Sequence record: NC_054926.1
Direction: 5' to 3' (one strand)
DNA length: 64,000 bases
DNA from: Escherichia phage vB_EcoM_OE5505
The position numbers and the translations under genes are program-made. This document shows, in pieces, positions 7,312-64,000 of this stretch. The stretch's first letter is position 1. Each line of letters starts with the position of its first letter. Below the pieces are notes generated by a model. It searched no databases. It was not told the DNA's origin and saw only the letters and a list, made by a program, of their open reading frames with translations.

Positions 7312-7316
7312 AAATT

Positions 7317-7403: not shown

Positions 7404-7409
7404 GCTATA

Positions 7410-39259: not shown

Positions 39260-40069
39260 ATGCTTAAAGAACAACTGATTGCTGAAGCGCAAAAAATTGA
39301 TGCTTCCGTTGCTCTTGATAGTATTTTCGAATCAGTTAATATTTCTCCGGAAGCAAAAGAAACTTTCGGCACTGTATTCGAAGCTACCGTCAAGCAGCAC
39401 GCCGTTAAATTAGCTGAATCTCATATCGCTAAAATTGCTGAAAAAGCAGAAGAAGAAGTAGAAAAAAATAAAGAAGAAGCAGAAGAAAAAGCTGAGAAGA
39501 AAATCGCTGAGCAAGCTTCTAAATTCATCGACCATCTTGCGAAAGAATGGCTCGCTGAAAATAAATTAGCAGTTGATAAAGGCATCAAAGCCGAACTGTT
39601 TGAATCCATGCTTGGTGGATTAAAAGAGCTCTTTGTTGAACACAACGTTGTTGTTCCAGAAGAATCAGTTGATGTTGTAGCTGAAATGGAAGAAGAGCTG
39701 CAAGAACATAAAGAAGAATCAGCTCGTCTGTTCGAAGAACTCAATAAGCGTGACGCATATATCAATTATGTGCAGCGTGAAGTGGCATTGAGCGAAAGTA
39801 CTAAAGATCTGACTGAGTCTCAAAAAGAAAAAGTCTCTGCTCTGGTCGAAGGTATGGATTATTCAGATGCATTCTCAAGTAAATTGAGTGCCATCGTAGA
39901 AATGGTGAAGAAGTCTAATAAAGATGAAAGCACTATTACTGAGAGTATAAATACTCCTGATACTGAAGCAGCCGGACTGAATTTCGTCACTGAAGCTGTA
40001 GAAGATAAAACTGCACCTGGTGCAGAAGATATTGTAAGTGTATATGCGAAAGTCGCATCTCGTTTCTAA
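39260..40069 (+). CDS. 22: Prohead scaffolding core protein gp22
   Basis: 269 aa, Glu/Lys/Ala-rich helical, order as T4. Confidence 0.93.
   Translation: MLKEQLIAEAQKIDASVALDSIFESVNISPEAKETFGTVFEATVKQHAVKLAESHIAKIAEKAEEEVEKNKEEAEEKAEKKIAEQASKFIDHLAKEWLAENKLAVDKGIKAELFESMLGGLKELFVEHNVVVPEESVDVVAEMEEELQEHKEESARLFEELNKRDAYINYVQREVALSESTKDLTESQKEKVSALVEGMDYSDAFSSKLSAIVEMVKKSNKDESTITESINTPDTEAAGLNFVTEAVEDKTAPGAEDIVSVYAKVASRF
39956..39963 (+). promoter_or_regulatory. Late promoter TATAAATA inside gene 22 (candidate gene 23 promoter)
   Basis: Exact TATAAATA about 125 nt upstream of gene 23 ATG. Confidence 0.5.
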
Positions 40070-40087
40070 TTTTAAAGGTTAACACAA

Positions 40088-41653: not shown

Positions 41654-41667
41654 TCTTTGACGATTTA

Positions 41668-41696
41668 AGGGACCTTCGGGTCCCTTTAGTTGTTTT
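41668..41696 (+). terminator. Rho-independent terminator after gene 23
   Basis: GGGACC-TTCG-GGTCCC hairpin followed by TTTAGTTGTTTTT. Confidence 0.65.
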
Positions 41697-41702
41697 TATG
41701 GT

Positions 41703-41710
41703 ATAAATAA
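41703..41710 (+). promoter_or_regulatory. Late promoter TATAAATA for gene 24
   Basis: Exact TATAAATA 26 nt upstream of gene 24 ATG. Confidence 0.6.
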
Positions 41711-41736
41711 ATCATATAAACTGAAAGGAAAGCGCA

Positions 41737-43020
41737 ATGGCTAAAATCAACGAACTTCTGCGCGAATCAACCACAACGAATAGCAACTCAATCGGTCGCC
41801 CAAATCTCGTTGCTTTGACTCGCGCTACCACTAAATTAATATATTCTGACATTGTAGCAACGCAAAGAACTAATCAACCTGTTGCTGCTTTTTATGGTAT
41901 CAAATACCTTAACCCGGATAACGAATTTACATTTAAAACTGGTGCTACTTACGCCGGCGAAGCTGGGTATGTAGACCGAGAACAAATCACAGAATTAACA
42001 GAAGAGTCTAAATTAACTCTCAATAAAGGCGATTTATTCAAATATAATAACATCGTTTATAAAGTATTAGAAGATACACCATTTGCTGATATTGAAGAAA
42101 GCGATTTAGAATTAGCTCTTCAGATTGCAATTGTTCTTTTAAAGGTTCGTCTATTTTCTGATGCTGCAGTAACAAGCAAATTTGAAAACTCTGATAGCGA
42201 AATTGCGGATGCTAGATTCCAGATTAATAAATGGCAAACCGCAGTTAAATCTCGTAAACTTAAAACTGGCATCACAGTCGAATTAGCACAAGATTTAGAA
42301 GCAAATGGATTTGATGCTCCTAATTTCTTGGAAGATTTGCTTGCAACTGAAATGGCGGATGAAATCAATAAAGATATTCTACAGTCTTTGATTACAGTAT
42401 CAAAACGCTATAAAGTTACAGGAATTACTGATACTGGATTCATTGATTTGAGTTATGCATCTGCACCTGAAGCTGGTCGTTCATTATACCGAATGGTGTG
42501 TGAAATGGTTTCACATATCCAAAAAGAATCAACTTATACAGCAACGTTCTGTGTTGCTTCAGCTCGTGCCGCTGCGATTCTTGCTGCATCAGGTTGGTTA
42601 AAACATAAACCAGAAGATGACAAATATCTTTCACAAAATGCCTACGGGTTCTTAGCTAATGGTTTACCGCTTTATTGCGATACCAACAGTCCATTAGATT
42701 ATGTAATCGTTGGTGTAGTAGAAAATATTGGTGAAAAAGAAATTGTTGGATCAATTTTCTATGCCCCGTATACAGAAGGTCTTGACTTAGATGACCCTGA
42801 ACATGTAGGTGCATTTAAAGTTGTAGTTGATCCAGAAAGTTTGCAGCCATCTATCGGTTTATTAGTTAGATATGCTTTATCTGCAAATCCTTACACTGTA
42901 GCAAAAAATGAAAAAGAAGCAAGAGTAATTGATGGTGGAGACATGGATAAAATGGCGGGTCGTTCAGATTTGTCTGTTTTATTAGGTGTTAAGCTACCAA
43001 AAATTATCATTGATGAATAA
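41737..43020 (+). CDS. 24: Capsid vertex protein gp24
   Basis: 427 aa, length and order as T4; no segD ORF between 23 and 24. Confidence 0.95.
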   Translation: MAKINELLRESTTTNSNSIGRPNLVALTRATTKLIYSDIVATQRTNQPVAAFYGIKYLNPDNEFTFKTGATYAGEAGYVDREQITELTEESKLTLNKGDLFKYNNIVYKVLEDTPFADIEESDLELALQIAIVLLKVRLFSDAAVTSKFENSDSEIADARFQINKWQTAVKSRKLKTGITVELAQDLEANGFDAPNFLEDLLATEMADEINKDILQSLITVSKRYKVTGITDTGFIDLSYASAPEAGRSLYRMVCEMVSHIQKESTYTATFCVASARAAAILAASGWLKHKPEDDKYLSQNAYGFLANGLPLYCDTNSPLDYVIVGVVENIGEKEIVGSIFYAPYTEGLDLDDPEHVGAFKVVVDPESLQPSIGLLVRYALSANPYTVAKNEKEARVIDGGDMDKMAGRSDLSVLLGVKLPKIIIDE

Positions 43021-50283: not shown

Positions 50284-50295
50284 TATTTATAAATA
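50284..50295. promoter_or_regulatory. Overlapping divergent late promoters (TATTTATAAATA) for genes 26 and 51
   Basis: TATAAATA readable on both strands within one 12-bp palindrome-like element. Confidence 0.55.
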
Positions 50296-50312
50296 GAATA
50301 AAAGGAGCATCT

Positions 50313-51065
50313 ATGGCAAACATTATTCGTTGTAAATTACCAGATGGTGTTCATCGTTTTAAACCATTTACGGTAGAAGATTATCGAGATTTTTTGTTAG
50401 TTCGAAACGATATAGAACATCGGTCACCACAAGAACAAAAAGAAATAATTACTGATTTAATTGATGATTATTTTGGAGACTATCCGAAGACTTGGCAACC
50501 ATTTATATTTTTGCAGGTATTTGTAGGTTCAATAGGTAAAACTAAAGTACCAGTCACATTTGTATGTCCAAAATGTAAAAAAGAAAAGACAGTTCCATTT
50601 GAAATATATCAAAAAGAATTAAAGGAACCTATTTTTGATGTAGCTAATGTTAAAATTAAATTAAATTTTCCTTCTGAGTTTTATGAAAATAAAGCAAAGA
50701 TGATTACTGAAAATATTCATTCTGTTCAAGTAGATGAAATGTGGTATGATTGGAAGGAAATTAGTGAATCGAGTCAAATAGAACTTGTTGACGCCATCGA
50801 GATAGAAACATTAGAAAAAATTCTCGATGCAATGAATCCTATTAATTTAACATTGCACATGTCGTGTTGTGATAAGTACATTAAAAAATACACTGATATA
50901 GTAGATGTGTTTAAGCTATTAGTTAATCCAGATGAGATATTTACTTTTTATCAAATTAATCACACGCTTGTAAAAAGTAATTATAGCTTAAATTCAATAA
51001 TGAAAATGATTCCTGCCGAGCGCGGATTCGTATTAAAACTGATTGAGAAGGATAAACATCAATGA
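50313..51065 (+). CDS. 51: Baseplate hub assembly protein gp51
   Basis: 250 aa, position as T4 gp51. Confidence 0.9.
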
Positions 51066-52237
51066 GTATGTTACAACGTCCTGGATATCCAAATCTCAGC
51101 GTTAAATTATTTGAGAGTTATGACGCTTGGAGTAATAATAGATTTGTTGAATTAGCTGCTACTATTACCACATTAACTATGCGTGACTCTCTTTATGGTC
51201 GAAATGAAGGAATGCTGCAGTTTTATGATTCTAAAAATATCCACACAAAAATGGATGGAAATGAAATAATTCAAATTTCTGTAGCTAATGCAAACGATAT
51301 TAATAATGTTAAAACACGAATTTATGGATGCAAGCATTTTTCCGTGTCAGTAGATTCAAAAGGCGATAACATCATTGCTATTGAATTGGGAACTATTCAT
51401 TCTATAGAAAATCTTAAATTTGGTAGACCATTTTTCCCTGATGCAGGTGAATCTATAAAAGAAATGCTTGGTGTCATTTATCAAGACCGCACATTATTAA
51501 CTCCAGCAATAAATGCTATAAATGCTTATGTTCCTGATATTCCATGGACTAGTACATTTGAAAATTATTTGTCCTATGTAAGAGAAGTTGCTCTAGCTGT
51601 AGGAAGTGACAAATTTGTATTTGTGTGGCAAGACATCATGGGAGTTAACATGATGGACTATGATATGATGATAAATCAAGAACCATATCCAATGATTGTA
51701 GGTGAGCCATCTTTAATAGGTCAATTCATCCAAGAATTAAAATATCCATTGGCATATGATTTTGTTTGGTTGACTAAATCAAACCCGCATAAACGTGATC
51801 CAATGAAAAATGCTACTATCTATGCTCATTCGTTTTTAGATTCTTCACTGCCAATGATTACTACAGGAAAGGGTGAAAACTCTATTGTAGTGTCAAGGTC
51901 AGGTGCTTATTCTGAAATGACTTATAGGAATGGCTATGAAGAAGCTATTCGTCTTCAAACTATGGCGCAATATGATGGCTATGCTAAATGTTCTACTGTC
52001 GGTAATTTTAACTTGACTCCTGGTGTTAAAATTATTTTTAATGATAGTAAAAACCAATTTAAAACAGAATTTTACGTTGATGAAGTTATCCATGAATTAT
52101 CAAATAATAATTCAGTAACTCATCTATATATGTTCACTAATGCAACGAAACTGGAAACAATAGACCCAGTTAAGGTTAAAAATGAATTTAAATCTGATAC
52201 TACCACTGAAGAAAGTAGTTCTTCCAATAAGCAATAA
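51062..52237 (+). CDS. 27: Baseplate hub protein gp27
   Basis: 391 aa, same length as T4 gp27. Confidence 0.93.
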
Positions 52238-52715
52238 AGAAGTTTCTATTCCTAAAATGGGTCTTAAACATTATAACATTTTAAAAGATGTTAAAGGCCC
52301 TGATGAAAATTTAAAACTTCTTATTGATTCTATTTGTCCGAATTTGTCACCGGCAGAAGTTGATTTCGTTTCTATTCATTTATTGGAATTTAATGGAAAG
52401 ATTAAATCTCGTAAAGAAATAGATGGCTATACTTATGACATTAATGATGTTTATGTATGCCAAAGATTAGAATTTCAATACCAAGGAAATACATTTTATT
52501 TTAGACCTCCTGGAAAATTTGAACAATTTTTAACGGTGAGCGATATGTTATCTAAATGCTTGCTTAAGGTCAACGATGAAGTTAAAGAAATTAATTTTCT
52601 TGAGATGCCAGCATTCGTTTTAAAATGGGCAAATGATATTTTTACAACTTTAGCAATTCCTGGCCCTAATGGTCCAATAACTGGAATTGGCAATATTATT
52701 GGATTATTTGAATGA
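52182..52715 (+). CDS. 28: Baseplate hub protein gp28
   Basis: 177 aa, same length as T4 gp28. Confidence 0.9.
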
Positions 52716-54484
52716 AAAAGCCACAAGAAATGCAAACGATGCGTAGAAAAGTTATTTCAGATAATAAACCAACACAGGAAGCGGCTAAATCCGCTTCCAA
52801 TACTTTATCTGGACTTAATGACATTTCTACAAAATTGGATGATGCTCAAGCTGCTTCTGAATTAATAGCTCAAACCGTTGAAGAAAAATCGAATGAAATA
52901 ATTGGAGCAATTGACAATGTAGAAAGCGCAGTGAGTGATACTACTGCTGGTTCTGAGTTAATTGCTGAAACTGTAGAAATTGGCAACAATATTAATAAAG
53001 AAATCGGTGAATCACTCGGAAGTAAATTAGATAAATTAACGAGTTTACTAGAACAAAAAATTCAAACAGCTGGAATTCAACAGACAGGAACCAGCTTAGC
53101 TGTAGTCGAAAGTGCTATTCCCGTTAAAGTTGTTGAGGATGATACAGCTGAATTTGTTGGTCCATTATTACCAGCTCCTGAAGCAGTTAATAATGATCCT
53201 GACGCTGATTTTTTCCCTGCCCCTCAACCAGTTGAACCTAAGCGAGAGTCACCGGAAGAAAAACAGAAAAAAGAAGCATTTAATTTAAAATTATCTCAAG
53301 CTTTAGATAAATTAACAAAGACTGTTGATTTTGGATTTAAAAAATCCATTTCAATTACTGATAAAATATCAAGCATGCTATTTAAGTATACTGTCAGTGC
53401 TGCTATTGAAGCTGCTAAAATGGTTGCATTAATAATGGCTGTTGTTATTGGAATAGACCTACTGATGGTTCATTTTAAATATTGGTCAGATAAATTTTCA
53501 AAAGCCTGGGATTTGTTTAGCACTGATTTTAAAACTTTTTCAAGCGAAACCGGAACTTGGGGTCCTTTATTACAGAGCATCTTTGAATCTATTGATGAAA
53601 TTAAAAAGTTCTGGGAAGCGGGAGATTGGGGCGGTTTGACGGTAGCTATTGTAGAAGGGCTTGGAAAGGTTCTTTATAATTTAGGAGAGCTTATTCAATT
53701 AGGTATGGCTAAATTATCTGCAGCAATTCTTCGAGTCATTCCTGGCATGAAGGATACTGCTGATGAAGTAGAAGGAAGAGCATTAGAAAATTTCCAAAAT
53801 TCTACTGGAGCATCTCTTAATAAAGAAGACCAAGAAAAAGTAGCAAATTATCAAGATAAACGAATGAATGATGATCTTGGCCCAATAGCAAAAGGATTAG
53901 ACAAAATTGCGAACTGGAAAACTCGTGCATCTAACTGGATTCGTGGTGTAGATAATAAAGAAGCATTGACTACTGACGAAGAACGTGCAGCAGAAGAAGA
54001 AAAATTAAAACAACTTTCACCGGAAGAAAGAAAAAATGCTTTAATGAAAGCTAATGAAGCCCGTGCCGCGATGATTCGTTTTGAAAAATATGCTGATTCA
54101 GCTGATATGAGTAAAGACTCAACAGTTAAATCAGTTGAAGCTGCCTATGAAGACCTTAAAAAACGGATGGATGACCCGGATTTAAATAATTCACCGGCAG
54201 TTAAAAAAGAACTTGCTGCTAGATTTTCTAAAATTGATGCTACTTATCAAGAGCTCAAGAAAAATCAGCCTAATGCCAAACCTGAAACTTCTGCTAAATC
54301 GCCAGAAGCAAAACAAGTCCAGGTAATAGAAAAGAACAAAGCACAACAAGCTCCTGTTCAACAAGCATCTCCTTCAATCAATAATACTAATAATGTTATT
54401 AAGAAAAATACTGTCGTTCATAATATGACACCCGTAACGAGCACAACTGCTCCTGGTGTATTTGGCGCGACTGGAGTTAATTAA
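52712..54484 (+). CDS. 29: Tail tape measure / baseplate hub protein gp29
   Basis: 590 aa, same length as T4 gp29. Confidence 0.93.
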   Translation: MKKPQEMQTMRRKVISDNKPTQEAAKSASNTLSGLNDISTKLDDAQAASELIAQTVEEKSNEIIGAIDNVESAVSDTTAGSELIAETVEIGNNINKEIGESLGSKLDKLTSLLEQKIQTAGIQQTGTSLAVVESAIPVKVVEDDTAEFVGPLLPAPEAVNNDPDADFFPAPQPVEPKRESPEEKQKKEAFNLKLSQALDKLTKTVDFGFKKSISITDKISSMLFKYTVSAAIEAAKMVALIMAVVIGIDLLMVHFKYWSDKFSKAWDLFSTDFKTFSSETGTWGPLLQSIFESIDEIKKFWEAGDWGGLTVAIVEGLGKVLYNLGELIQLGMAKLSAAILRVIPGMKDTADEVEGRALENFQNSTGASLNKEDQEKVANYQDKRMNDDLGPIAKGLDKIANWKTRASNWIRGVDNKEALTTDEERAAEEEKLKQLSPEERKNALMKANEARAAMIRFEKYADSADMSKDSTVKSVEAAYEDLKKRMDDPDLNNSPAVKKELAARFSKIDATYQELKKNQPNAKPETSAKSPEAKQVQVIEKNKAQQAPVQQASPSINNTNNVIKKNTVVHNMTPVTSTTAPGVFGATGVN

Positions 54485-54492
54485 GGAATAAT

Positions 54493-55587
54493 ATGGCAAT
54501 TGTTAAAGAAATAACTGCTGATTTAATTAAAAAGTCCGGTGAGAAAATTTCAGCCGGACAGAGTACTAAATCAGAAGTAGGAACTAAAACATACACAGCC
54601 CAGTTTCCAACTGGGCGTGCTAGTGGGAATGACACTACAGGGGACTTCCAGGTAACAGATCTATATAAGAATGGATTATTATTTACTGCATACAATATGT
54701 CATCTAGGGATTCTGGAAGTCTCAGAACGATGAGATCTAACTACTCTTCTTCATCTTCTAGTATTTTACGTACAGCCAGAAACACTATCAGTAATACAGT
54801 ATCAAAACTGTCAAATGGATTAATATCAGATAATAATTCAGGAACAATAAGTAAAGTTCCTGTTGCAAATATTCTTTTACCGAGATCTAAATCTGATGTT
54901 GATACATCATCACATAGATTTAACGATGTTCAAGATAGTCTTATTACAAAAGGTGGAGGTACTGCTACTGGCGTGTTAAGCAATATGGCTTCAACTGCAG
55001 TATTTGGAGCACTGGAAAGTATAACACAAGGTATAATGGCTGATAATAATGAACAGATTTATACGACAGCCAGAAGTATGTATGGTGGTGCTGAGAATAG
55101 AACTAAAGTGTTCACTTGGGATTTGACTCCGCGTTCCACAGAAGATTTAATGTCTATTATTAATATCTATCAATATTTTAACTATTTTTCTTATGGTGAA
55201 ACGGGTAAATCTCAATATGCTGCTGAAATAAAAGGATATCTAGATGAGTGGTACCGTTCTACTTTTATTGAGCCGTTAACTCCAGAAGATGCAGTTAAAA
55301 ATAAGACGTTATTTGAGAAAATGACATCGAGTTTAACTAACGTTCTTGTAGTTTCAAACCCGACAATTTGGATGGTGAAAAACTTTGGTGCAACATCTAA
55401 GTTTGATGGAAAAACGGAAATATTCGGTCCATGTCAAATCCAGAGTATCAGATTTGATAAAACACCTAATGGTAACTTTAACGGATTAGCTATTGCTCCA
55501 AATCTCCCTAGTACATTTACTCTCGAGATTACTATGAGAGAAATTATCACGTTAAACCGTGCTTCTTTATATGCGGGGACTTTTTAA
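54493..55587 (+). CDS. 48: Baseplate tail-tube junction protein gp48
   Basis: 364 aa, same length as T4 gp48. Confidence 0.93.
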   Translation: MAIVKEITADLIKKSGEKISAGQSTKSEVGTKTYTAQFPTGRASGNDTTGDFQVTDLYKNGLLFTAYNMSSRDSGSLRTMRSNYSSSSSSILRTARNTISNTVSKLSNGLISDNNSGTISKVPVANILLPRSKSDVDTSSHRFNDVQDSLITKGGGTATGVLSNMASTAVFGALESITQGIMADNNEQIYTTARSMYGGAENRTKVFTWDLTPRSTEDLMSIINIYQYFNYFSYGETGKSQYAAEIKGYLDEWYRSTFIEPLTPEDAVKNKTLFEKMTSSLTNVLVVSNPTIWMVKNFGATSKFDGKTEIFGPCQIQSIRFDKTPNGNFNGLAIAPNLPSTFTLEITMREIITLNRASLYAGTF

Positions 55588-56552
55588 TGTATTCTTTAGA
55601 GGAATTTAATAATCAAGCAATAAACGCAGATTTCCAACGTAATAATATGTTCAGCTGTGTTTTTGCTACAACTCCATCAACTAAAAGCTCTTCGTTGATA
55701 AGTTCAATTAGCAACTTTTCTTATAATAACTTGGGCCTAAATTCAGATTGGTTAGGATTAACTCAAGGCGATATTAATCAGGGAATTACTACGCTAATTA
55801 CAGCTGGCACACAAAAACTGATAAGAAAATCAGGGGTTAGTAAATATCTTATTGGTGCCATGAGTCAACGTACAGTTCAAAGTTTATTAGGCTCATTTAC
55901 AGTTGGTACATATTTAATTGACTTCTTTAACATGGCATATAACTCATCTGGATTGATGATATACTCTGTAAAAATGCCAGAGAATAGATTATCCTATGAA
56001 ACTGACTGGAACTATAATTCTCCTAATATTCGTATAACTGGGAGAGAATTAGACCCTTTGGTTATTTCATTCAGAATGGATTCAGAAGCTTGTAACTATC
56101 GTGCAATGCAAGACTGGGTTAACGCTGTTCAAGACCCAGTAACTGGATTGCGTGCTTTGCCGCAAGATGTCGAGGCAGATATTCAGGTTAATCTTCATTC
56201 TCGCAATGGATTACCACATACTGCGGTGATGTTCACTGGATGCATTCCAGTGTCCGTAAGCGCTCCTGAGTTATCATATGATGGAGATAACCAAATAACT
56301 ACATTTGATGTTACTTTTGCGTATAGAGTGATGCAGGCTGGAGCAGTTGATAGACAAGCTGCCATTGAATGGCTTGAATCTGCTACTATAAATGGTATTC
56401 AAAGCGTTCTCGGAAATAGTGGAGGTGTTACTGGACTATCTAATTCGCTTTCACGACTTAGTAGATTAGGGGGAACTGCAGGAAGCATTTCAAATATTAA
56501 CACTATGACAGGAATTGTCAATTCGCAAAGTAAAATATTAGGAGCAATATAA
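55587..56552 (+). CDS. 54: Baseplate tail-tube initiator gp54
   Basis: 321 aa, position as T4 gp54. Confidence 0.93.
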   Translation: MYSLEEFNNQAINADFQRNNMFSCVFATTPSTKSSSLISSISNFSYNNLGLNSDWLGLTQGDINQGITTLITAGTQKLIRKSGVSKYLIGAMSQRTVQSLLGSFTVGTYLIDFFNMAYNSSGLMIYSVKMPENRLSYETDWNYNSPNIRITGRELDPLVISFRMDSEACNYRAMQDWVNAVQDPVTGLRALPQDVEADIQVNLHSRNGLPHTAVMFTGCIPVSVSAPELSYDGDNQITTFDVTFAYRVMQAGAVDRQAAIEWLESATINGIQSVLGNSGGVTGLSNSLSRLSRLGGTAGSISNINTMTGIVNSQSKILGAI

Positions 56553-56556
56553 CAAT

Positions 56557-56580
56557 GGGGACCGAAAGGTCCCCATATTT
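56557..56580 (+). terminator. Terminator after gene 54
   Basis: GGGGACC-GAAA-GGTCCCC hairpin followed by ATATTTT. Confidence 0.6.
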
Positions 56581-56870
56581 TATTTACGGAATGAAATAAA
56601 AGCAGCAACTGAAGCAACAGAGGTTTCTTCAATATAAACCTCAATTTTTACCGGAGCTTCTGACTCAAATTTACCTGTTACTACACCTTGGAAAATACTT
56701 TCAGTCTGTTCTGGCTTTGAAAAATTTTCAGAAGGAAAAATTCCGAACTTTTTATCTGTTCCAAAAATTTTGATAAATTCATCATAAACTGCTTCATTAA
56801 AAGCGTTATCAGCAGGAATAACGCCTTCAACTACAAGTTCTTGACCTAAAAAGCGTAAAGAAGATTTCAT
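56580..56870 (-). CDS. Hypothetical protein in 54-alt interval (alt.-3 position)
   Basis: 96 aa ORF. Confidence 0.7.
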   Translation of the reverse strand: MKSSLRFLGQELVVEGVIPADNAFNEAVYDEFIKIFGTDKKFGIFPSENFSKPEQTESIFQGVVTGKFESEAPVKIEVYIEETSVASVAAFISFRK

Positions 56871-56930
56871 TTTGTGTTCCTCATGTTATGTCAGTAAGAC
56901 TACTATAACACAACACGAGGGACTTGTAAA

Positions 56931-58982
56931 CTACATTTTGAACTTTTTAGACATTCCGTTGATGTTAACCAAAGAAGCTAAGATTTGAGAAACTTCGCTT
57001 TCCTCTTCTTTTGATTCTTCTACAAGGAATTGATTAAATCCAGCCATTGGACGAACTTCACCAGTTTCCATTAGATGGTCGCCATCATATACTGATTCTT
57101 CTAATTGTTCAGAAGGAGGAACGATTGTACCTTCGATTAGATACTTGTTATAAGCAGTTTCTTTCATAAAGTAAGTACTTACTTTATTAATCTTCAGTAA
57201 AATTCCACGTGGTAGAATAATTTCAGCTTCTGACGGAAATCCTGATAAATGACCCGGAACGATAACTTTGATTCGCTCAGCTCCTTTAATTACCATACCC
57301 ACGCTAGTTTCAGCATCTTCATTAGCATATGTAGAATGACTACCCATATGCATCAAATCTTCTGCATCAACGGAACCTTCTCCTTCACCAGAAAATACTG
57401 CGCCGGAATCATCTAGAGCCATATAGTTTTTACCATGCTCACCGAAGATATTTGGTTTAAGCGATGTGGATACGAAGTTCTTGAAATAGAACATTTTATT
57501 TTCAATGTTATGACGCAAAGTTTTAAAGGTAACTTCTTGTCCACGGTAAAGTGTAGTTCCTGGAGGAAGAACTGAACCTTTAGCGAATGCAGAATCAAGC
57601 GTCTCAATATGTTTAATAGCTCGTTCCATATATTCTTCACGGGTAGAATCTGGTTTACCCAAAAGGAACGAGTTCATTTCAACATATGAATCTGCACAAT
57701 AATCTTCAATTACATCAGATTCAGCTTGAGTTAATCCTTTTGGAGTTACTTCAGTGCTTGCGTATTCATATGCCTGAGCAGCAGATTCATTAATCAATTT
57801 ATAAATGCCATTCATGACAAATTGAATAATAGCTGTCTTTTCATCTGGCGTAGCTTTAGAACCTTTAACCAAATCATTGATAATTTTCTTAATAACATCA
57901 AAGCTATTAGAAATATTAATATCAGCAAGATCGCTTAAAATTTTATCAGTCTTATAATCAAAGAATTCTTTATTCTTTAAATATTCTTGAGAACCTTGAT
58001 ATGTTATATCGCTCTGTAACTTGATAGATGGATCACGTAAACGTGCATGGGCTAATGCAATATGATTTCGGAAGCTTTCGAGTTCATAATCACTAGATTT
58101 AAAACGAGAAGCGCTTCTCATACCGCCTATAGCTCCTTTGCTGAAGTTTGAACCAATTTGAATAACGCCAGAGTTCATTGGTCCTTCTGCTTTATACACC
58201 GGAACTTTAGATTCAAACTCTTGATATTTCTTAGCAGCGAAGCTATCACCCTGAAGTGAAGCATCAACAGTAGAATATTGAGCTTGTGCTGCTAATCGAC
58301 GACTAATTTTAGTTTTCTGAATAACAGCTTGGTCCGTGCGCTTATCATTTTCTAAAGCAATAGAAGCAGCAACAGCTTTAGGAACAGCATTACCTGTTTT
58401 AACATCTACATAAACATCACCAACCTTTGATTCAACTTTTGTGAATAACTCAGTTGAAATAGGAGGTACACCTGGAATGTCTTCTAAATTGGCATTTTTA
58501 CGATAAACCATAATATATGCGTACTTTTTATCATAATCCCAGATTTCCTTTAAAAGAACATATCGACCTGCTCCTTTAGTACGTACTAAACGGTCAGCAA
58601 TAACTTGCATTTGACGAGCTGCGCCATTTGTTTTACTCTTTAGTACACGGAATAAGCACGCGTCAATTTTATACTGCTTCATTGTTTGAAGAGCAGTATC
58701 AAAAACGGCATTAATGACACCAATTGGATTTCCACCCAAGTTTTTAAGCTTAACTAATGATAGTTTCTCATTAACACCTATCATTACGATATGCATCATT
58801 TTATCGCCTGGCTTAACGTTTTTATTCGTATCACCACCAGAGGTGTATGTACAAAATCTAAATCCAGGAAGCACGCTTTCTTCGCCGGCTTGAATAGCAA
58901 AAATTTGTGGTATTTTATGCTTAGGATTTAAGTTAACAACCGGCGCCGAAGCGCCGTCAAATAATTCTGTAATAAGTTCCAT
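56931..58982 (-). CDS. Alt-like ADP-ribosyltransferase paralog
   Basis: 683 aa; N-terminus MELITELFD; R-S-ExE signature (LYRGQ, FVSTSL, EAEIILPRG); conserved C-terminal YDGDHLMETGEV. Confidence 0.85.
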   Translation of the reverse strand: MELITELFDGASAPVVNLNPKHKIPQIFAIQAGEESVLPGFRFCTYTSGGDTNKNVKPGDKMMHIVMIGVNEKLSLVKLKNLGGNPIGVINAVFDTALQTMKQYKIDACLFRVLKSKTNGAARQMQVIADRLVRTKGAGRYVLLKEIWDYDKKYAYIMVYRKNANLEDIPGVPPISTELFTKVESKVGDVYVDVKTGNAVPKAVAASIALENDKRTDQAVIQKTKISRRLAAQAQYSTVDASLQGDSFAAKKYQEFESKVPVYKAEGPMNSGVIQIGSNFSKGAIGGMRSASRFKSSDYELESFRNHIALAHARLRDPSIKLQSDITYQGSQEYLKNKEFFDYKTDKILSDLADINISNSFDVIKKIINDLVKGSKATPDEKTAIIQFVMNGIYKLINESAAQAYEYASTEVTPKGLTQAESDVIEDYCADSYVEMNSFLLGKPDSTREEYMERAIKHIETLDSAFAKGSVLPPGTTLYRGQEVTFKTLRHNIENKMFYFKNFVSTSLKPNIFGEHGKNYMALDDSGAVFSGEGEGSVDAEDLMHMGSHSTYANEDAETSVGMVIKGAERIKVIVPGHLSGFPSEAEIILPRGILLKINKVSTYFMKETAYNKYLIEGTIVPPSEQLEESVYDGDHLMETGEVRPMAGFNQFLVEESKEEESEVSQILASLVNINGMSKKFKM

Positions 58983-58985
58983 GAT

Positions 58986-61040
58986 TTATCCTTGAACGAA
59001 CTTGTAAGGCATGTTTGCAATATCTATACAAGACGCAATAATTCCAAGAGATGATTCTACTTTCTGTTTAACATTTGATGAAACAAATGATGCAAAGTCA
59101 ACTCTGTCTTCTACTTCAATATCACCTGTCATTGTAACTACTTCGCCGGTTTCCATTAGACGGTCACCGTCATAAATTACCGATTCGGTGAGTTCTTCTG
59201 TGGTCATAACTTCAGCTTGAATAAGCTTGTTGTTAGTTTTAACTGTTCCATCATTGTAAGATGCATCGGTTATTTTATTAACTTTGACCATTAATCCACG
59301 TGGCAAAATGACTTCCATTTCATTTGAAGGTGCTAAACTTCCACCTGGTAAAACAACATTGACTTTATCAGCCCCAGTAATAACCCATCCAATTCCAACT
59401 AAATTATCGCTAGAATTTACTAGTCCTTCATCAGTTTTATCAATAGAAACACTTAAACGCTTTTCGTCTGGTAAAACACCCACAGATGAATCAGTCATCC
59501 AGGTACCAAAAATATTTGGATATAATGATGTTGACACAAAATTTCTAAAATAAAAAACTCGATTTTTTACCAGTGCTTCATATATTGAAGGTAACATTCG
59601 TTGTGAACGATACAAAGTAATACCTTTTGGTAATCGTTCACCATTTTTAAAGGCTGAATCTAAATTATCAATAGCTTTTTCTATGTCAGATGCTGTCAAA
59701 ATACTTGTACGCTCATCTGGATTATATAATCCCAAAAGAGCATTATTTATGTCTACATATCCTGAACCTACGTATTCACGAATTCCGCGTTTTTGTGCTG
59801 GTGTGTATTTAGATGAATCTTTATTTTCGACTATAGGATGTAATGACCATCCAGCGGTAAGAGCATATCCACGCAATTCTCTTCGAATAATCTTTGTTTT
59901 TATTGCATTCCAAGAATTTTGTACTAACTCATTCGCAGCATCTTGATTTAAATGCGAATGCTTGTTAATGTTTCTTTCTAACCAAGCACCTTTATATTTT
60001 TCTAAAGTATCATCAACTATAGAAGCAATAGTTTCTAAAGTTTTTATTGAAGTAATAGATTCTTTTCGTAATCTTTCTAAAGCTTTATTTTTTATTTCTG
60101 CATTAACATCAGATTCTTTATCTTCAGGAATTATAGAAGCTTCTCTGAATGCCATTCCAGCTGTAACACTACTAAGAGCATTCTCTAATGCAAATCCTGA
60201 AGTAGAAATAACAGTTAATTCATTAGCGTCAGAAATTAAAGGAGCGTCAGCAGGTTTATTTAATTCTGCTGCTGAAGCCTCAAATTTTTGAAACATCGGC
60301 GTTTCAAATCTAGAAGATTCCAATGATTGACTTTGCGCAATTGCTCTACGGGAAATTTTAACTTTAACGATTACAGCTTGGTCAGAACGTTTATCATTTT
60401 CTTGCGCAATAGATGCTGCAATTGCCTCATTTTTAGTTACTTGAGCTCCAGTATCTTTATTGATATAAACATCACCGACCTTCGATTCAACTTTAGTAAA
60501 GAGCTCAGTACTAATTTCCGGAACTCCCGGAATGTCTTCTAGTGATACATTTTTGCGATGTATAAGAATATATGCATACTTTTTATCGTAATCCCAGAGT
60601 TCCTTAAGAAGGACGTATCTGCCACCTGAACGACTGCGGATAAGTCTATCAGCAATAAGTTGAATTTGACGAGCTTGACCAGCAGTTTTAGACTTAAGAA
60701 TACGGAGCATGCAGGCATCAATTTTATACTGACGCATCGTTTGCATTGCAACTGTAAAAACTGAATTGATATAATTAATTGGGCTTGGACCAAGACCTTT
60801 TAATTTAGCAATTGAACCTTTAGCAGTTAATGTAAAAGGAACAATATGCATCATTTTATCGCCCATCTTTAAATCGCGATTAGTATCACCTCCAGATGTA
60901 TAGGTACATAAACGAAAGCCTGGTTGTTCAATTGCATCATCAACATGAACTGAAAAAATTTGCGGTATTTTCTTCTTTGGATTTAAGTTTGTAATCGGAA
61001 GAGTAGTATCTTCGTCAAATAATTCTGTAATAAGTTCCAT
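58986..61040 (-). CDS. alt: Alt ADP-ribosyltransferase (virion-packaged, modifies host RNA polymerase)
   Basis: 682 aa from second Met; R-S-ExE signature (LYRSQ, FVSTSL, EMEVILPRG); adjacent to gene 30 as in T4. Confidence 0.9.
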   Translation of the reverse strand: MELITELFDEDTTLPITNLNPKKKIPQIFSVHVDDAIEQPGFRLCTYTSGGDTNRDLKMGDKMMHIVPFTLTAKGSIAKLKGLGPSPINYINSVFTVAMQTMRQYKIDACMLRILKSKTAGQARQIQLIADRLIRSRSGGRYVLLKELWDYDKKYAYILIHRKNVSLEDIPGVPEISTELFTKVESKVGDVYINKDTGAQVTKNEAIAASIAQENDKRSDQAVIVKVKISRRAIAQSQSLESSRFETPMFQKFEASAAELNKPADAPLISDANELTVISTSGFALENALSSVTAGMAFREASIIPEDKESDVNAEIKNKALERLRKESITSIKTLETIASIVDDTLEKYKGAWLERNINKHSHLNQDAANELVQNSWNAIKTKIIRRELRGYALTAGWSLHPIVENKDSSKYTPAQKRGIREYVGSGYVDINNALLGLYNPDERTSILTASDIEKAIDNLDSAFKNGERLPKGITLYRSQRMLPSIYEALVKNRVFYFRNFVSTSLYPNIFGTWMTDSSVGVLPDEKRLSVSIDKTDEGLVNSSDNLVGIGWVITGADKVNVVLPGGSLAPSNEMEVILPRGLMVKVNKITDASYNDGTVKTNNKLIQAEVMTTEELTESVIYDGDRLMETGEVVTMTGDIEVEDRVDFASFVSSNVKQKVESSLGIIASCIDIANMPYKFVQG

Positions 61041-61062
61041 CATAGCCTCTCTAGTGTTTATT

Positions 61063-61070
61063 CTATTTAT
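61063..61070 (-). promoter_or_regulatory. Late promoter TATAAATA upstream of alt
   Basis: TATAAATA on minus strand about 23 nt upstream of alt start. Confidence 0.5.
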
Positions 61071-61075
61071 AAAAT

Positions 61076-61093
61076 TAAAGGCCCGAAGGCCTT
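61076..61093 (-). terminator. Hairpin terminator after small ORF 61093-61281
   Basis: AAAGGCC-TTCG-GGCCTTT tetraloop hairpin. Confidence 0.5.
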
Positions 61094-61281
61094 TAATAAT
61101 CTAGTGGTAAGAGAGTACGGTATATTTCAAACTTTGGACCTTTTTCATAGGCATCAAATGTTTCTGTGAATTTATTATAAGCGTATGCATCTACAAATTC
61201 GAGAATGACTTGTGATACAGAAGTAGAAACATCTCCACCTTCTTTTTGAGCAATGACAATTGTTTCTAAGTAAGCTTTCAT
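61093..61281 (-). CDS. Hypothetical small protein between alt and gene 30
   Basis: 62 aa ORF; ATGA overlap with gene 30 stop. Confidence 0.65.
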   Translation of the reverse strand: MKAYLETIVIAQKEGGDVSTSVSQVILEFVDAYAYNKFTETFDAYEKGPKFEIYRTLLPLDY

Positions 61282-62741
61282 AAACCAGTTACCTCATGAA
61301 AATCACCAAATACATCCTCGAATGTATTAGCTTTAGTTTTATCTTCACGCAAACGAATCGCAATCGGAAGAAATAATTTAACGTAATCAGTGCGGCCATC
61401 AGATTTTAACCAACCGTTGCATTCGCACTCTAGAATTTTTCCAATATAATAATTTTGGTTTTCCATAATGCGAGTACGGTCAAGTTCATGCGATTTTACA
61501 CCGGCTTTATCTTTTAAGCCTGAACCAGCATTTACCTTAATTTTTCCACACTCTGATTCAAGAATAAATCCACCCGCTTTAGTAGGGTCTTTACGGTGAG
61601 GATAAATTCCTACAATTTTTAAATCAACATCAATTACTTCTTTAAATTTATAGAGATTTTTTGAACGAGCATTTTCCCATAATCCATCGATATTTTTGAG
61701 AATAATACCTTCAAGACCTTGGTCAATATACTTTTTATAAATTACCTTAGCTTCATCTAGGTTATTTACTACTTGGTTTTCAATTAAAATTACTTTATCA
61801 TATCCTGATGTCATTTGTTCTAGTTTAGAAAAACGTACATCATATTTTAAACGAAACGCCGGAAGACCGTATATTTCTACTAACGGGACATAATCCCAGA
61901 CCTGAAACTTCATGCATTGAGCTTCTTTTTCTGAAATAGTTCCCTTTAAAGATTTATTGGCAATTCCATTAGAAGCAGTACGAGATTCAGCTACTTCGGC
62001 GAATTCTTTAGCTTTACTAATTTCAGGATAAGCATCAAAAAGAAAATCTAGGCCTTCTGGTTCCTTTTCAACTTGCTCATGGTATACCAATTCGCCATCA
62101 ATTAACACACCTTCTGGATGAATCTGGCGGGCTTCAGCGGTCATTTTGATTAACTCTTCCTTAAGAAGGTCTAATCCTAGATATTCATTACCAGCTCGTG
62201 ATAAAAGACGAACATCATCTAATTCATCACCTCTAACTTCAGCAAAACACCGAGCTCCATCAGCTTTTAACTGGGCAAAGGCTGGAAATTTAATATTCTT
62301 ATTAATGCCTTTTTCATCATAAGAACTTGCCAGCATTTGAGGTTGTTCAGGAATTAAACCTGGCCAAACTTTGTTTGCAATAGATACTGAAGCACCACAT
62401 TCAAGGTCTCGCATCATCACTCGACGCAAAACTTCAACATCATCTTTTTTACCATCGGTGATGTATCCAGTTAATTCCTCAATTGCCGCATTTCCAGTCA
62501 ATTTCCGAGTAGCTAACGTGAATTCAATGAAGTCAAGCATATCGGTAAGAGTCAACATTCCAAAACTCTGGGTAGCAATACCAGGTTTAGGCCATTTCTT
62601 GATATAATACTGTAACCCACGAGAATAAGTCAGACGATATACTCGTTTAAGCAATTCATTATCTTTATTCTTTTCAAGAATTGCTTGCTTCTGTTTAGTT
62701 GAACCAATAGATGCTATTTCGTTCAGAATTTTAAGAATCAT
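61278..62741 (-). CDS. 30: ATP-dependent DNA ligase gp30
   Basis: 487 aa, same length as T4 ligase; adenylation motif KADGAR. Confidence 0.95.
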   Translation of the reverse strand: MILKILNEIASIGSTKQKQAILEKNKDNELLKRVYRLTYSRGLQYYIKKWPKPGIATQSFGMLTLTDMLDFIEFTLATRKLTGNAAIEELTGYITDGKKDDVEVLRRVMMRDLECGASVSIANKVWPGLIPEQPQMLASSYDEKGINKNIKFPAFAQLKADGARCFAEVRGDELDDVRLLSRAGNEYLGLDLLKEELIKMTAEARQIHPEGVLIDGELVYHEQVEKEPEGLDFLFDAYPEISKAKEFAEVAESRTASNGIANKSLKGTISEKEAQCMKFQVWDYVPLVEIYGLPAFRLKYDVRFSKLEQMTSGYDKVILIENQVVNNLDEAKVIYKKYIDQGLEGIILKNIDGLWENARSKNLYKFKEVIDVDLKIVGIYPHRKDPTKAGGFILESECGKIKVNAGSGLKDKAGVKSHELDRTRIMENQNYYIGKILECECNGWLKSDGRTDYVKLFLPIAIRLREDKTKANTFEDVFGDFHEVTGL

Positions 62742-63007
62742 TGTTCATCCTTTAGAGTTTGGTTTACAGCTCTATTATAAATCAATTCATCATTAAGCTC
62801 AGTCAAAGACCTGTGGTACGTGGTTCTAACTTTATTTCCTTGCATCCAGTGCTTGACGTAAATGAAACCTTGCTCTACACATTTTTTAAAAATTCGTTCG
62901 TCTTTTTGAGCTCGGAATTCTGGATTGCATCTAAAAAATTGATTTACGTGACCGTAATCACGTGTAGTATTACCTTCATTTTCATAAATAGTGTGAACAA
63001 CAAACAT
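62738..63007 (-). CDS. 30.1: Hypothetical protein 30.1
   Basis: 89 aa ORF overlapping gene 30 start. Confidence 0.75.
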   Translation of the reverse strand: MFVVHTIYENEGNTTRDYGHVNQFFRCNPEFRAQKDERIFKKCVEQGFIYVKHWMQGNKVRTTYHRSLTELNDELIYNRAVNQTLKDEQ

Positions 63008-63846
63008 TAGAATGCTCCTTGGAAAATATTATCACCACTAGTAGGTCTATTATACAAATACTCTATGCCACCAGGTTTAATATAGTTCCATGTCTGAAAC
63101 GGATGTGTCTGATATGGATGATATAGATGATTATAAGGATTAAATCCAGGAGTTCTCCAGGTAGTGTTCCAAGGAAAAGAATCGTTTTTGATCATCTTCT
63201 CGATTGCATCTTTTATAGCTTTTTCACTATCAAAGCTTTCTTTATTTTCCTTTGGTGAAAAAAGCTTATTCTCTACATCGTTCCATGTATAAACTCGCTG
63301 AGCAGTTTTTGGAATATTGTCACGCTCTCCTCGAGCCATCCAATAAACAGGAACATTTAATATTTCACTCGCGTGATCGCAGTGGTGAGCGAGATCGTCA
63401 ATATAACAAATTACGTTATATTTCTCTTTTGCCTTTTTGAACAACTCTTCTTTTGAAGAATCATGACCACACATCATTACTTCTGAGAAGGCACCAGGAA
63501 AAAGAGCATTCAAATTAAATTGACGATTCAGCAGAGCGTCAATAGAATCACCCAGTGCTGTAACAGCTACAAAATTATAATCTTCTTTTAATTTGTTAAT
63601 TACACACAGAGCATCTTTATATGGAGACAAGTAACGAATAAAATCCGAACGATTGTATTTTTCAATTAACTTGACGCCAAGTTCTTCATCACAATTAAAA
63701 AGTTTACCTGGAGAAATAAATTTCTCATCTTGGATCATTTTTAAAATATGTTCCAACGGAAGGTTATATTTCTGGGCAAAATAAGGAAGGCCTGATTGCC
63801 AGCTTAAACATACTCCATCAATATCAGTTAAAATAGTAGGCTTCAT
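63007..63846 (-). CDS. 30.2: Hypothetical protein 30.2
   Basis: 279 aa ORF, ATGA-coupled with neighbours. Confidence 0.8.
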   Translation of the reverse strand: MKPTILTDIDGVCLSWQSGLPYFAQKYNLPLEHILKMIQDEKFISPGKLFNCDEELGVKLIEKYNRSDFIRYLSPYKDALCVINKLKEDYNFVAVTALGDSIDALLNRQFNLNALFPGAFSEVMMCGHDSSKEELFKKAKEKYNVICYIDDLAHHCDHASEILNVPVYWMARGERDNIPKTAQRVYTWNDVENKLFSPKENKESFDSEKAIKDAIEKMIKNDSFPWNTTWRTPGFNPYNHLYHPYQTHPFQTWNYIKPGGIEYLYNRPTSGDNIFQGAF

Positions 63847-64000
63847 AAAGAGTCTCTTAATAGGTTTAACACATCAATAAATTCAGCTTCGGTTAGTATT
63901 GTATCATCTTTTGTTAGACCACTAGCCATGCTGTGCTTCAAAACTTTTCCTTTCGAGGCTTGTAATGCATCGCGAAAGCCCCTATTTTGGATCGCTGCTT
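63843..64000 (-). CDS. Partial CDS (30.3 position), 5-prime end beyond window
   Basis: Open frame ...MASGLTKDDTILTEAEFIDVLNLLRDSL ending in TGA overlapping 30.2 ATG. Confidence 0.5.
   Translation of the reverse strand, partial: AAIQNRGFRDALQASKGKVLKHSMASGLTKDDTILTEAEFIDVLNLLRDSL

Follow-up and report, generated by a model that had tools for sequence, protein, structure and literature searches.

The second of two adjacent Alt-type genes in Escherichia phage vB_EcoM_OE5505 (record NC_054926.1; the 64,000-nt stretch analysed is called here the window) probably encodes a functional second member of the Alt family, that is, an arginine-specific mono-ADP-ribosyltransferase (ART) which would be packaged in the head, processed by gp21 and injected, and whose target range would differ from that of Alt. 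The integrity of this gene (copy 2), its homology, motifs, selection, operon, distribution and remnant in T4 were computed, and we infer that the protein is packaged, cleaved, injected and active and that its targets are distinct. According to the proposed mechanism, the protein would be made late in infection on the same late-promoter transcript as alt and would enter the prohead core by the shared N-terminal module, possibly together with the C-terminal propeptide. There gp21 would trim it after I-T-E6 and L-E-E629 to a mature form of ~69 kDa, which at the next infection would be ejected into the host together with the DNA. Its residues and fold predict an arginine-specific mono-ADP-ribosyltransferase of the R-S-ExE class, with targets that may be at least partly unlike those of Alt.

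As a gene, copy 2 is already known. Hundreds of genomes, among them T2, T6 and RB14, have it annotated as "alt.-2" or "Alt-like", and a paper of 2006 (PMC1524935) already mentioned paralogs of Alt. A literature search, with most subscription journals outside it, found no functional, proteomic, biochemical or genetic study of copy 2.

The gene pair and its transcription

The preliminary description of this DNA had placed two adjacent Alt-type ART genes on the minus strand, and both reading frames and their PF03496 domains were recovered. The locus is, in gene order, between gene 30/alt.1 and alt.-3/gene 54.

61064 to 61071, minus strand: T4-type late promoter TATAAATA, 5′ of copy 1 (exact match)
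58986 to 61040, minus strand: copy 1, the alt gene, 684 aa, ortholog of T4 Alt (98% identity to NP_049811, a head-packaged, injected NAD+-arginine mono-ADP-ribosyltransferase)
58983 to 58993, minus strand: copy 1/copy 2 junction, with Shine-Dalgarno AAGGA (58989-58993), TAA (58986-58988), a 3-nt gap and the ATG of copy 2
56931 to 58982, minus strand: copy 2, intact second Alt-family ART, 683 aa, "alt.-2" in the RB14/T6 annotation (41% identity to copy 1 and to T4 Alt)

Copy 1 begins with two in-frame ATGs, of which the second (61040) is equivalent to that of T4 and gives 684 aa, and the first (61043) gives a 685-aa ORF. The two proteins are 41% identical overall (BLASTP, E = 2e-161), a likeness far above chance. 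Both pass the Pfam gathering cut-off of 23.4 bits for PF03496 (ADPrib_exo_Tox), with 121.7 bits for copy 1 (E = 3.2e-35), which also belongs to PHROG 802, and 71.9 bits for copy 2 (E = 6e-20). The weaker ART score of copy 2 is a point against the reading favored here.

The sequence TATAAATA is the sole late-promoter match within 50295-64000. It comes after the hairpin AAAGGCCTTCGGGCCTTT (61077-61094), at the same place as an annotated terminator in phage JB75. Between copy 1 and copy 2 no late promoter was found, and thus alt and copy 2 would be co-transcribed, sharing both locus and late operon. The Shine-Dalgarno sequence of copy 2 overlaps the end of copy 1.

Domains, catalytic residues and processing

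58965 to 58982, minus strand: N-terminal propeptide of copy 2, MELITE, whose last residues I-T-E6 are the gp21 motif (same as T4 Alt residues 1-6)
58263 to 58964, minus strand: copy 2 N-domain, residues 7-240, alpha/beta with a helical linker, PF26846 Tevenvirinae_ADPRT (68% identity to Alt)
57723 to 58262, minus strand: copy 2 middle domain, residues 241-420, all-helical, hypervariable across the family (mean pairwise identity 0.08-0.14)
57096 to 57722, minus strand: copy 2 ART domain, residues 421-629, ending at L627-E628-E629 (57096-57104), a predicted gp21 site
57543 to 57545, 57462 to 57470 and 57222 to 57230, minus strand: copy 2 catalytic codons R480, S505-T-S507 and E585-A-E587, respectively
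56934 to 57095, minus strand: copy 2 predicted C-terminal propeptide, residues 630-683, acidic, with YDGDHLMETGEV at 57054-57089
59805 to 60320, minus strand: copy 1 middle domain, residues 241-412, helical
59184 to 59804, minus strand: copy 1 ART domain, residues 413-619, ending in L-T-E619
58989 to 59183, minus strand: copy 1 C-terminal propeptide, residues 620-684 (94% identity between T4-type and T6-type alt)
38591 to 39229, plus strand: gp21 prohead serine protease (PF03420 Peptidase_S77, E = 1.5e-111)

The architecture of copy 2 is that of T4 Alt throughout, i.e., MELITE, a PF26846 N-domain, a helical middle, the PF03496 R-S-ExE residues, an L-x-E motif and an acidic C-propeptide. The shared N-terminal region, previously put at about 200 residues, was confirmed but is longer. 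The N-terminal ~240 residues are 68% identical between the copies, the same value applies to T4 Alt over residues 1-235, and conservation in the 59-member family alignment drops near residue 240. The predicted structure of the N-domain has pLDDT mostly of 75-91. Its PF26846 assignment comes from precomputed matches on homologs (positional orthologs and a cluster of 772 sequences at 98% identity, which carries PF03496 as well), our own Pfam scan being without PF26846. This family is found also in proteins without an ART domain. Since synonymous sites of the N-domain are saturated between the copies (dS = 1.24), its 68% identity indicates functional constraint, not gene conversion, and the domain is proposed to be a packaging/delivery module. 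A GNAT (acyl-CoA N-acyltransferase) fold was considered for the N-domain; a conserved LGGxPIG loop precedes helix 86-104, and its likeness to the acetyl-CoA pyrophosphate-binding motif of GNAT is a positional analogy only. No Pfam family of MuF (phage Mu F / SPP1 gp7) was detected in copy 1 or copy 2 at E ≤ 1, the N-domain being PF26846, in contrast to the head-packaged Alt/VIP2 ARTs that have an N-terminal MuF fusion (PMC9503650).

The central regions had been described as largely unrelated. This is true of the sequence, as the central ~180 residues (241-420 of copy 2) have no detectable similarity to copy 1 (BLASTP E = 2.3; HHalign probability 0.9%), but the helix pattern is alike in both and an all-helical fold is probably shared. 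HHalign (probability 96%) relates the middle domain of copy 2 to the KM16-type middle region, and the domain is a candidate for substrate or partner recognition.

The alt gene itself occurs as exchangeable middle-plus-ART cassettes between constant flanks. The cassette (codons ~238-606) is diverged between the T4-type and T2/T6-type alleles; on either side of it, over codons 1-237 and from 607 to the end, their DNA identity is 96-100%.

The alignment bears out the earlier claim of intact R / S-T-S / E-x-E residues in both proteins. Copy 2 has LYR480GQ, FVS505-T-S507L and E585-A-E587-IILPRG, aligned with R478, S503-T-S505 and E574-M-E576 of copy 1. The family alignments, of 59 and 60 members, show no variation at the R, at the first of the two S or at either E (R480, S505, E585 and E587 of copy 2). 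The T4 Alt variant "E577A" is catalytically dead (PMC11404850); by our own count, E577 is the second Glu of the ExE. The presence of ExE in both copies predicts arginine specificity. The ART domains of the two are about 36-39% identical, their inserts between STS and ExE (variable, ~511-576 in copy 2) are unrelated, and the loop preceding the ExE is SGFPSEAE in copy 2 versus LAPSNEME in copy 1.

The catalytic domain of copy 2 is structurally similar to solved R-S-E (C3/VIP2-like) ARTs. Sequence identity to the C3/VIP2/iota-type toxins (Vis, Certhrax, CPILE-a, C3bot2, VIP2, SpvB and ExoS) is 13-25%. These toxins have neither a PF26846 N-domain nor an Alt middle domain nor gp21 propeptides, and their delivery depends on secretion or binary-toxin machinery, with no phage head involved. 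ModA and ModB of T4, small enzymes that are produced early in infection and are not packaged, fall in the same Alt/VIP2 R-S-E clade as copy 2 (PMC5512222), which differs in having the full Alt architecture and a late promoter.

The prohead core of T4 contains about 40 copies of Alt, and gp21 cuts this protein at ITE-6 and LTE-619 to a 68.2-kDa form (PMC9026906, PMC5694885), stripping residues 1-6 and the 63 residues after LTE-619 (PMC5694885). The mass calculated for residues 7-619 is 68.2 kDa, matching the published value. Copy 2 keeps both motifs at aligned positions, namely MELITE and L627-E-E629 before SVYDGD. Across the family, conservation of E6 and of E629 is at least 90%, and the model of copy 2 is disordered at 627-634. 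Given the role of gp21 in Alt processing (PMC5694885, PMC9026906), the enzyme encoded in the window is expected to process both Alt proteins. The predicted C-terminal propeptide of copy 2 (pI about 4.5) aligns with the 63 residues cut from T4 Alt. The tail YDGDxLMETGEV, reported before as conserved, is indeed in both copies, past the T4 Alt cleavage position; in T4 it belongs to the propeptide removed by gp21 (PMC5694885) and is thus not a part of mature Alt.

Target range and alternative roles

A second injected ART with a different substrate or partner had been suggested for copy 2. At the level of sequence, the full set of catalytic and family-invariant residues, selection, the N-terminal domain, gp21 motifs, late operon and divergent regions are consistent with this suggestion, and the middle domain, STS-ExE insert and pre-ExE loop of copy 2, all its own, would fit a different substrate or partner. 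The targets of T4 Alt include RNA polymerase alpha, and from these three differences the target set of copy 2 is expected to differ at least partly. Alt of T4 modifies many proteins, as PMC5512222 relates from Depping et al. 2005, so the two sets may overlap broadly. An unlike middle domain is also no proof of unlike substrates, and both middles appear to share their helical architecture.

As a special case of this explanation, copy 2 might act mainly on host immunity or toxin proteins, not on the transcription apparatus, and its presence or absence and cassette variation would then follow host defence repertoires. This is conceivable, though not probable. The presence/absence polymorphism of copy 2 and the cassette-like turnover of middle and ART between constant flanks at the alt locus are in its favor, and T4 Alt is said, in work of Alawneh et al. 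from 2016, to ADP-ribosylate the toxin MazF. The internal proteins injected by T-even phages are also presented as a varied group of defence proteins, with only a capsid-targeting sequence in common (PMC3012670). Alt follows the logic of these proteins (IPI-III) and of polymorphic toxins with its constant N-terminal targeting part, gp21 processing and variable effector, but the constant part is a folded domain of ~240 residues plus a C-propeptide instead of a 10-20-residue signal, and the locus involves no immunity gene. Against a defence role, copy 2 is highly conserved in Tequatrovirus (dN about 0.005) and not diversifying.

It is rather unlikely that copy 2 is a redundant dosage copy, packaged and injected like Alt and modifying the same host proteins (e.g., RNA polymerase alpha at Arg265) only to raise the dose or provide a backup. 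The shared operon, N-domain and processing motifs, the same catalytic class and the loss of copy 2 in the T4 clade without obvious harm would suit such a role. On the contrary, the paralogs are ancient (dS saturated) and both are under strong purifying selection in most genomes, across genera, and pure redundancy is rarely stable for so long; in addition, the middle domain, STS-ExE insert and pre-ExE loop all differ.

Even less probable is a protein that is not injected, either acting late in the producing cell, on proteins of the host or the phage, or serving mainly as a structural part of the prohead core with irrelevant enzyme activity. Late-promoter expression agrees with this, as does the importance of Alt as a core protein besides its enzyme function (PMC11404850), but a purely structural role is at odds with the retention of all catalytic residues and with an ART domain dN/dS of 0.01-0.05, and the two gp21 motifs and the N-domain shared with the injected Alt favor the same route for copy 2. 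A functional second injected ART remains the preferred reading.

Selection, distribution and loss in T4

Purifying selection on copy 2 is strong, with dN/dS about 0.04. In comparisons of JB75, T2, T6, RB14 and the window phage, the full-length gene gives 0.03-0.05 at dS of 0.12-0.20, and no single region (N-domain, middle or ART) goes above about 0.1, the ART domain lying at 0.01-0.05. The orthologs, annotated as alt.-2 or "Alt-like RNA polymerase ADP-ribosyltransferase" in T2, T6, RB14, JB75 and many other Tequatrovirus, occupy the same position and have 685 aa, with dN of 0.004-0.009 and no difference of substance from the window gene, which is two residues shorter. Two further phages, KM16 of Salmonella and a divergent metagenomic one of 173 kb, have the two-gene slot as well.

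The status of the paralog in T4 had been left open in the preliminary description. T4 has only a remnant, the alt.-1 and alt.-2 ORFs (NP_049810 and NP_049809, which the annotation explains by an old, partial alt duplication) at the same locus, and from its sequence copy 2 is the intact form of these fragments. Both flanks are collinear and near-identical in DNA, and the T4 ORFs map within copy 2. Similarly, PHROGs 23015 and 15247, with profiles of 61 and 67 positions (the sizes of T4 alt.-1 and alt.-2), match residues 1-56 and 62-117 of copy 2. The remnant results from a 1-nt frameshift (deletion) and a 1,693-bp deletion between the short direct repeats CTAAAGAGT and CTAAAAAGT, which takes out about codons 114-677 and leaves no ART domain. 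The T6 record mentions an "apparent insertion in alt.-2"; this was rejected, because the direct-repeat junction and the full-length homology indicate a deletion in T4.

DNA of copy 2 is present in about 400 phage records, versus 90 (T4 and 89 others) with the T4-type deletion junction. Decay of a duplicate toward a pseudogene, as those 90 records might suggest, is effectively refuted by the selection analysis, with dN/dS near 0.04 and not near 1. The intact ORF in the window phage, T2, T6, RB14 and JB75, the copy-2-specific DNA of the ~400 records and the positional orthologs in other genera also speak against it.

With no intact copy 2 protein in T4, the biochemistry of that phage gives nothing direct on copy 2. 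Ancestrally, and in the majority of genomes, the two genes stand in tandem; the T4 clade lost copy 2 through a deletion. Since this clade, natural isolates included, thrives without it, copy 2 is dispensable, at least on some hosts.

The tandem alt genes and the T4 remnant of copy 2

The window comes from a T4-like phage of the genus Tequatrovirus, with Escherichia phage 107 as its best match (97.6% identical over 24 kb) and no identical record in the collection searched. Two adjacent minus-strand genes of the Alt type had been placed in it by a preliminary description; they are real and their coordinates right, both as ORFs and as related proteins (41% identity, E = 2e-161, BLASTP). Copy 1 is alt, 98% identical to T4 Alt. 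Copy 2, the downstream gene, is 41% identical to T4 Alt. Both copies exceed the Pfam threshold of PF03496, no NCBIfam model matches copy 1, copy 2, alt.-3, or alt.1, and the search for solved structures gave none for copy 2 and just marginal CdtA matches for copy 1. Two consecutive in-frame ATGs open copy 1 (61040-61043; MMELITE...), and T4 is annotated from the second.

Features of the alt region in the window (flanking genes by Pfam and comparison with the T4 record)
61278-62741, minus strand: DNA ligase, gene 30, flank of the pair
61093-61281, minus strand: alt.1, flank of the pair
61064-61071, minus strand: T4 late promoter consensus TATAAATA, just past a hairpin, 5' of copy 1
58986-61043, minus strand: copy 1 (alt), ORF; the T4-equivalent start at 61040 gives 684 aa
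59223-60329: exchangeable part of alt, copy 1 codons ~238-606
56931-58982, minus strand: copy 2, ORF of 683 aa
56902-56930, minus strand: promoter-like site of alt.-3, sigma-70/early-type match TTTACA-17-TATAGT
56580-56870, minus strand: alt.-3, DUF5498, 96 aa, immediately 3' of copy 2, with gene 54 beyond
56555-56576: hairpin, bidirectional terminator at the end of alt.-3, common to gene 54
38591-39229: gp21 prohead protease

A local G+C peak at 40001-42000 (0.434 vs. about 0.35 elsewhere) coincides with the major capsid gene 23 (40088-41653, PF07068).

The T4 reference record places two small ORFs, alt.-1 and alt.-2, after alt, and its notes trace them to an old duplication that covered the beginning of this gene. 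The alignment of copy 2 (56931-58982) with the T4 region from alt.-1 to alt.-3 (alt.-1/alt.-2 at 7066-7451 of the T4 locus L001) shows nearly identical flanks and two lesions in T4. The one is a 1-nt deletion relative to copy 2, causing a frameshift. The second, an out-of-frame deletion of 1,693 bp, runs between two imperfect direct repeats of 9 nt, CTAAAGAGT at copy 2 nt 340 and CTAAAAAGT at nt 2033. PHROGs 23015 and 15247 match copy 2 residues 1-56 and 62-117, and their profile lengths (61 and 67) fit the sizes of the two T4 fragments. Given the flanks, the lesions, and the PHROG matches, copy 2 is identified as the intact gene and T4 alt.-1/alt.-2 as its remnant. Whether this paralog had already been characterised in T4, as the preliminary description asked, is answered in the negative, since the gene is absent from T4, which keeps a remnant alone.

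An insertion in T6-like phages, as worded in the T6 record, is rejected: what T4 lacks is a homologous middle and ADP-ribosyltransferase (ART) region of full length, and the T4 junction lies between imperfect direct repeats. The sequences support a deletion in T4 as the origin of the difference. The T4-type junction is found in 90 records, namely T4 strains and isolates including RB55, RB59, ACG-C40, HY03, and Salmonella phage SG1. Because one and the same junction recurs in natural isolates, the deletion is a trait of a lineage and no laboratory artefact of T4.

The tandem pair is the old, majority state, and T4 is the exception. In 376 phage records, the matches span 80% or more of the two-gene region; a few records in the match table of this query (H1, H2, H38, and H39) have three separate matching places, not one or two. 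The copy 2 DNA missing from T4 is matched in 419 records, and in 400 of these the match extends over 80% or more of the query, with an identity of 93% or higher. T2, T6, and RB14 have one intact 685-aa copy 2 each, under the wordings "hypothetical protein; alt.-1", "apparent insertion in alt.-2; also similar to alt" (T6), and "alt.-2: Alt-like RNA polymerase ADP-ribosyltransferase". Salmonella phage KM16 also has the two-gene slot, with a slot-2 protein that shares 46% identity with copy 2, and so does a divergent metagenomic phage of 173 kb, with a slot-2 protein at 38%. Paralogs of alt in T4, RB49, and 44RR were noted by Nolan et al. 2006 (PMC1524935).

As a gene, copy 2 is already known, through the RefSeq name "Alt-like", hundreds of genomes, Pfam PF26846, and the duplication mentioned in the T4 record and the literature; a cluster of 772 member sequences matches it at 98% identity. 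As an enzyme, it appears uncharacterised: the literature searched, which takes in few of the subscription journals, yielded no work on its function or structure and no proteomic study, so that older work may be missed. Alt goes unmentioned in a 2025 paper on the proteins that T-even phages inject.

Conserved ends, catalytic core and divergent middle

Copy 2 is under strong purifying selection. Among the window phage, JB75, T2, T6, and RB14, its full length shows dS of 0.12-0.20, dN of 0.004-0.009, and dN/dS of 0.03-0.05 (Nei-Gojobori); the N-domain, middle, and ART regions reach at most about 0.1 each, and the tail is too short for a reliable value. A pseudogene or decaying copy is rejected by a dN/dS of about 0.04.

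The positions invariant in the 59- and 60-member family alignments are, in copy 2 numbering, Y428, D463, R480, S505, E585, E587, P591, R592, and G593. Among them is the R / S / ExE catalytic set, so the second copy does retain the residues that the preliminary description had ascribed to it. In T4 Alt, activity is lost in the "E577A" mutant (PMC11404850). This residue is the second Glu of ExE, E576 by count on NP_049811; the difference of one is consistent with counting from the first of the two ATGs. Copy 2 displays every feature of the Alt family that can be looked for in a sequence, and its catalytic competence is supported at that level.

In T4, each head contains about 40 copies of Alt, a component of the prohead core that is ejected together with the DNA. 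Cleavage by gp21 at ITE-6 and LTE-619 shortens the protein by 6 and 63 residues to a mature form of 68.2 kDa (PMC9026906, PMC5694885). The computed mass of T4 Alt residues 7-619 is also 68.2 kDa, which validates the mapping of the cleavage sites. Copy 2 starts with MELITE, identical to T4 Alt, and at the C-terminal aligned position has L627-E-E629 followed by SVYDGD. E6 and E629 are conserved in at least 90% of the family, and the predicted model of copy 2 is disordered at 627-634. The shared tail YDGDxLMETGEV is conserved in both copies, as first described, but it is part of an acidic C-terminal propeptide (pI about 4.5) absent from mature T4 Alt, since the gp21 cut site precedes the motif in the alignment.

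The N-domains of the two paralogs are 68% identical even though their synonymous sites are saturated (dS 1.24, dN 0.28). This is an indication that their likeness is due to functional constraint; recent gene conversion is rejected on the same values. On the simplest interpretation, the two proteins would share one apparatus for packaging, processing, and ejection, made up of the N-domain and the propeptides. The presence of packaging signals in copy 2 is supported by its sequence, and the protein would probably be injected.

Conservation along copy 2 (family conservation profile)
Residues 1-240: conserved
Residues 241-420: hypervariable, mean pairwise identity 0.08-0.14
Residues 421-600: conserved ART core, with a variable insert at 521-560
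Residues 621-640: conserved block at the cleavage site

The central regions had been called largely unrelated. This holds for their sequences, as no homology was detected between the middle regions of the two copies (BLASTP E = 2.3; HHalign probability 0.9%), and that of copy 2 is related to the KM16 type (HHalign probability 96%). At the level of fold, however, the models speak otherwise. Both middle regions are about 70% helical, with similar helix order and length and 73% agreement in secondary structure, and the copy 2 model aligns with that of Shigella phage SP18 Alt over 665 columns (TM 0.73). For these reasons a common fold is likely, and a replacement by a non-homologous domain finds no support in the models, although sequence homology is gone. 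The fold search for a function of the middle domain gave generic helical-bundle matches alone.

The insert between STS and ExE is unrelated between the copies, and the loop preceding ExE reads SGFPSEAE in copy 2 vs. LAPSNEME in copy 1. For C3-like toxins, substrate choice depends in part on this loop. Such differences would be expected for a different target range, without being proof of it, and copy 2 may well have a distinct substrate.

Among the structural matches to copy 2, proteins of Acinetobacter phages ZZ1 and Henu6 are annotated as 'split RNA polymerase ADP-ribosylase' (BFVD entries I3WW50, A0A410T5F4, and A0A410T542), that is, Alt-like proteins as separate pieces.

Expression and cassette exchange

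In phage JB75, the hairpin equivalent to the one 5' of copy 1 carries a terminator annotation. Only 3 nt separate the copy 1 stop from the copy 2 ATG, the Shine-Dalgarno sequence of copy 2 (AAGGA) lies within the end of copy 1, and no late promoter was found between them. The two genes would thus be co-transcribed late, at the stage of head assembly. In the whole window, the TATAAATA octamer occurs 23 times vs. 10 expected, a count reached in 0 of 100 shuffles; the excess is consistent with a structural region rich in late genes. In the case of alt.-3, mutants of the T4 protein with a C-terminal extension escape the CmdTAC defence system, and that work concerns alt.-3 alone, not copy 2 (PMC11618068).

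Two forms of alt exist, one of 682-684 aa in T4, the window phage, and JB75, and one of 697 aa in T2 (L004:5805-7898), T6 (L003:4363-6456), and RB14 (L005:5193-7286).

Comparison of the two alt types (identities in DNA and protein)
Codons 1 to ~237: DNA 96-100%, protein 100%
Cassette (codons ~238-606), middle part: DNA diverged, protein 33%
Cassette, ART part: DNA diverged, protein 66%
Codon ~607 to the end: DNA 96-100%, protein 94%

Within the cassette, synonymous divergence exceeds a dS of 1. Because the flanks are 96-100% identical in DNA while the interior is deeply diverged, alt is a mosaic, whose middle and ART part acts like a cassette that can be exchanged while the flanks stay constant. 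Clustering of the best 120 database matches gives nine middle and ART types behind N-domains 60-100% identical. A representative library of 1.84 billion proteins contains 112 matching clusters only, many of which align in two separate stretches that leave out the middle.

PF26846 is also found in proteins with neither an ART nor any other Pfam domain (P0200, P0216, P0219, and P0221; 221-1142 aa, with P0200 of 485 aa and P0221 of 1142 aa), whose contigs (L009 and L010) are just 2.4-4.7 kb, too short for gene context. This suggests that the PF26846 N-domain can carry other payloads. On the basis of the alt mosaicism, the nine cassette types, and the ART-less PF26846 proteins, the Alt family behaves as a constant delivery chassis with exchangeable effector cassettes, in two slots per genome.

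A possible two-slot effector system in the T-even phages

The interpretation offered by the preliminary description stands in part, at the level of sequence, for the identity of both genes and for the catalytic competence and packaging signals of copy 2; it has been corrected for the tail and the status of the gene in T4. A wider reading is put forward tentatively and is rather doubtful as a whole: the T-even alt locus would be a two-slot polymorphic system of injected effectors, in which recombination swaps cassettes on a constant chassis and slot 2 hits proteins that Alt does not, with an effect on host range. The chassis would consist of the PF26846 N-domain, for which a GNAT-like fold is conceivable, and the gp21-cleaved N- and C-propeptides, and the targets of slot 2 could be, for instance, defence or toxin proteins. 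If this were true, the T4-based picture of T-even injection would be incomplete, since T4 is without slot 2 and the slot-1 cassette of T2 and T6 differs.

As far as found, knowledge of Alt (its packaging, processing, targets, and effect on early transcription) comes from T4, whose lineage deleted the second gene. About four-fifths of the sequenced relatives with the locus, T2 and T6 included, encode a conserved, apparently competent, and putatively injected second ART, and in T2 and T6 alt itself has a different middle and ART cassette too. A T4-centred view of injected ARTs misses an enzyme common to most relatives, and the cassette structure gives clear testable predictions. If the targets of the two enzymes differ, the early takeover of the host by natural T-even phages would include modifications invisible to work on T4, which would matter for host range and for Tequatrovirus phages used in therapy.
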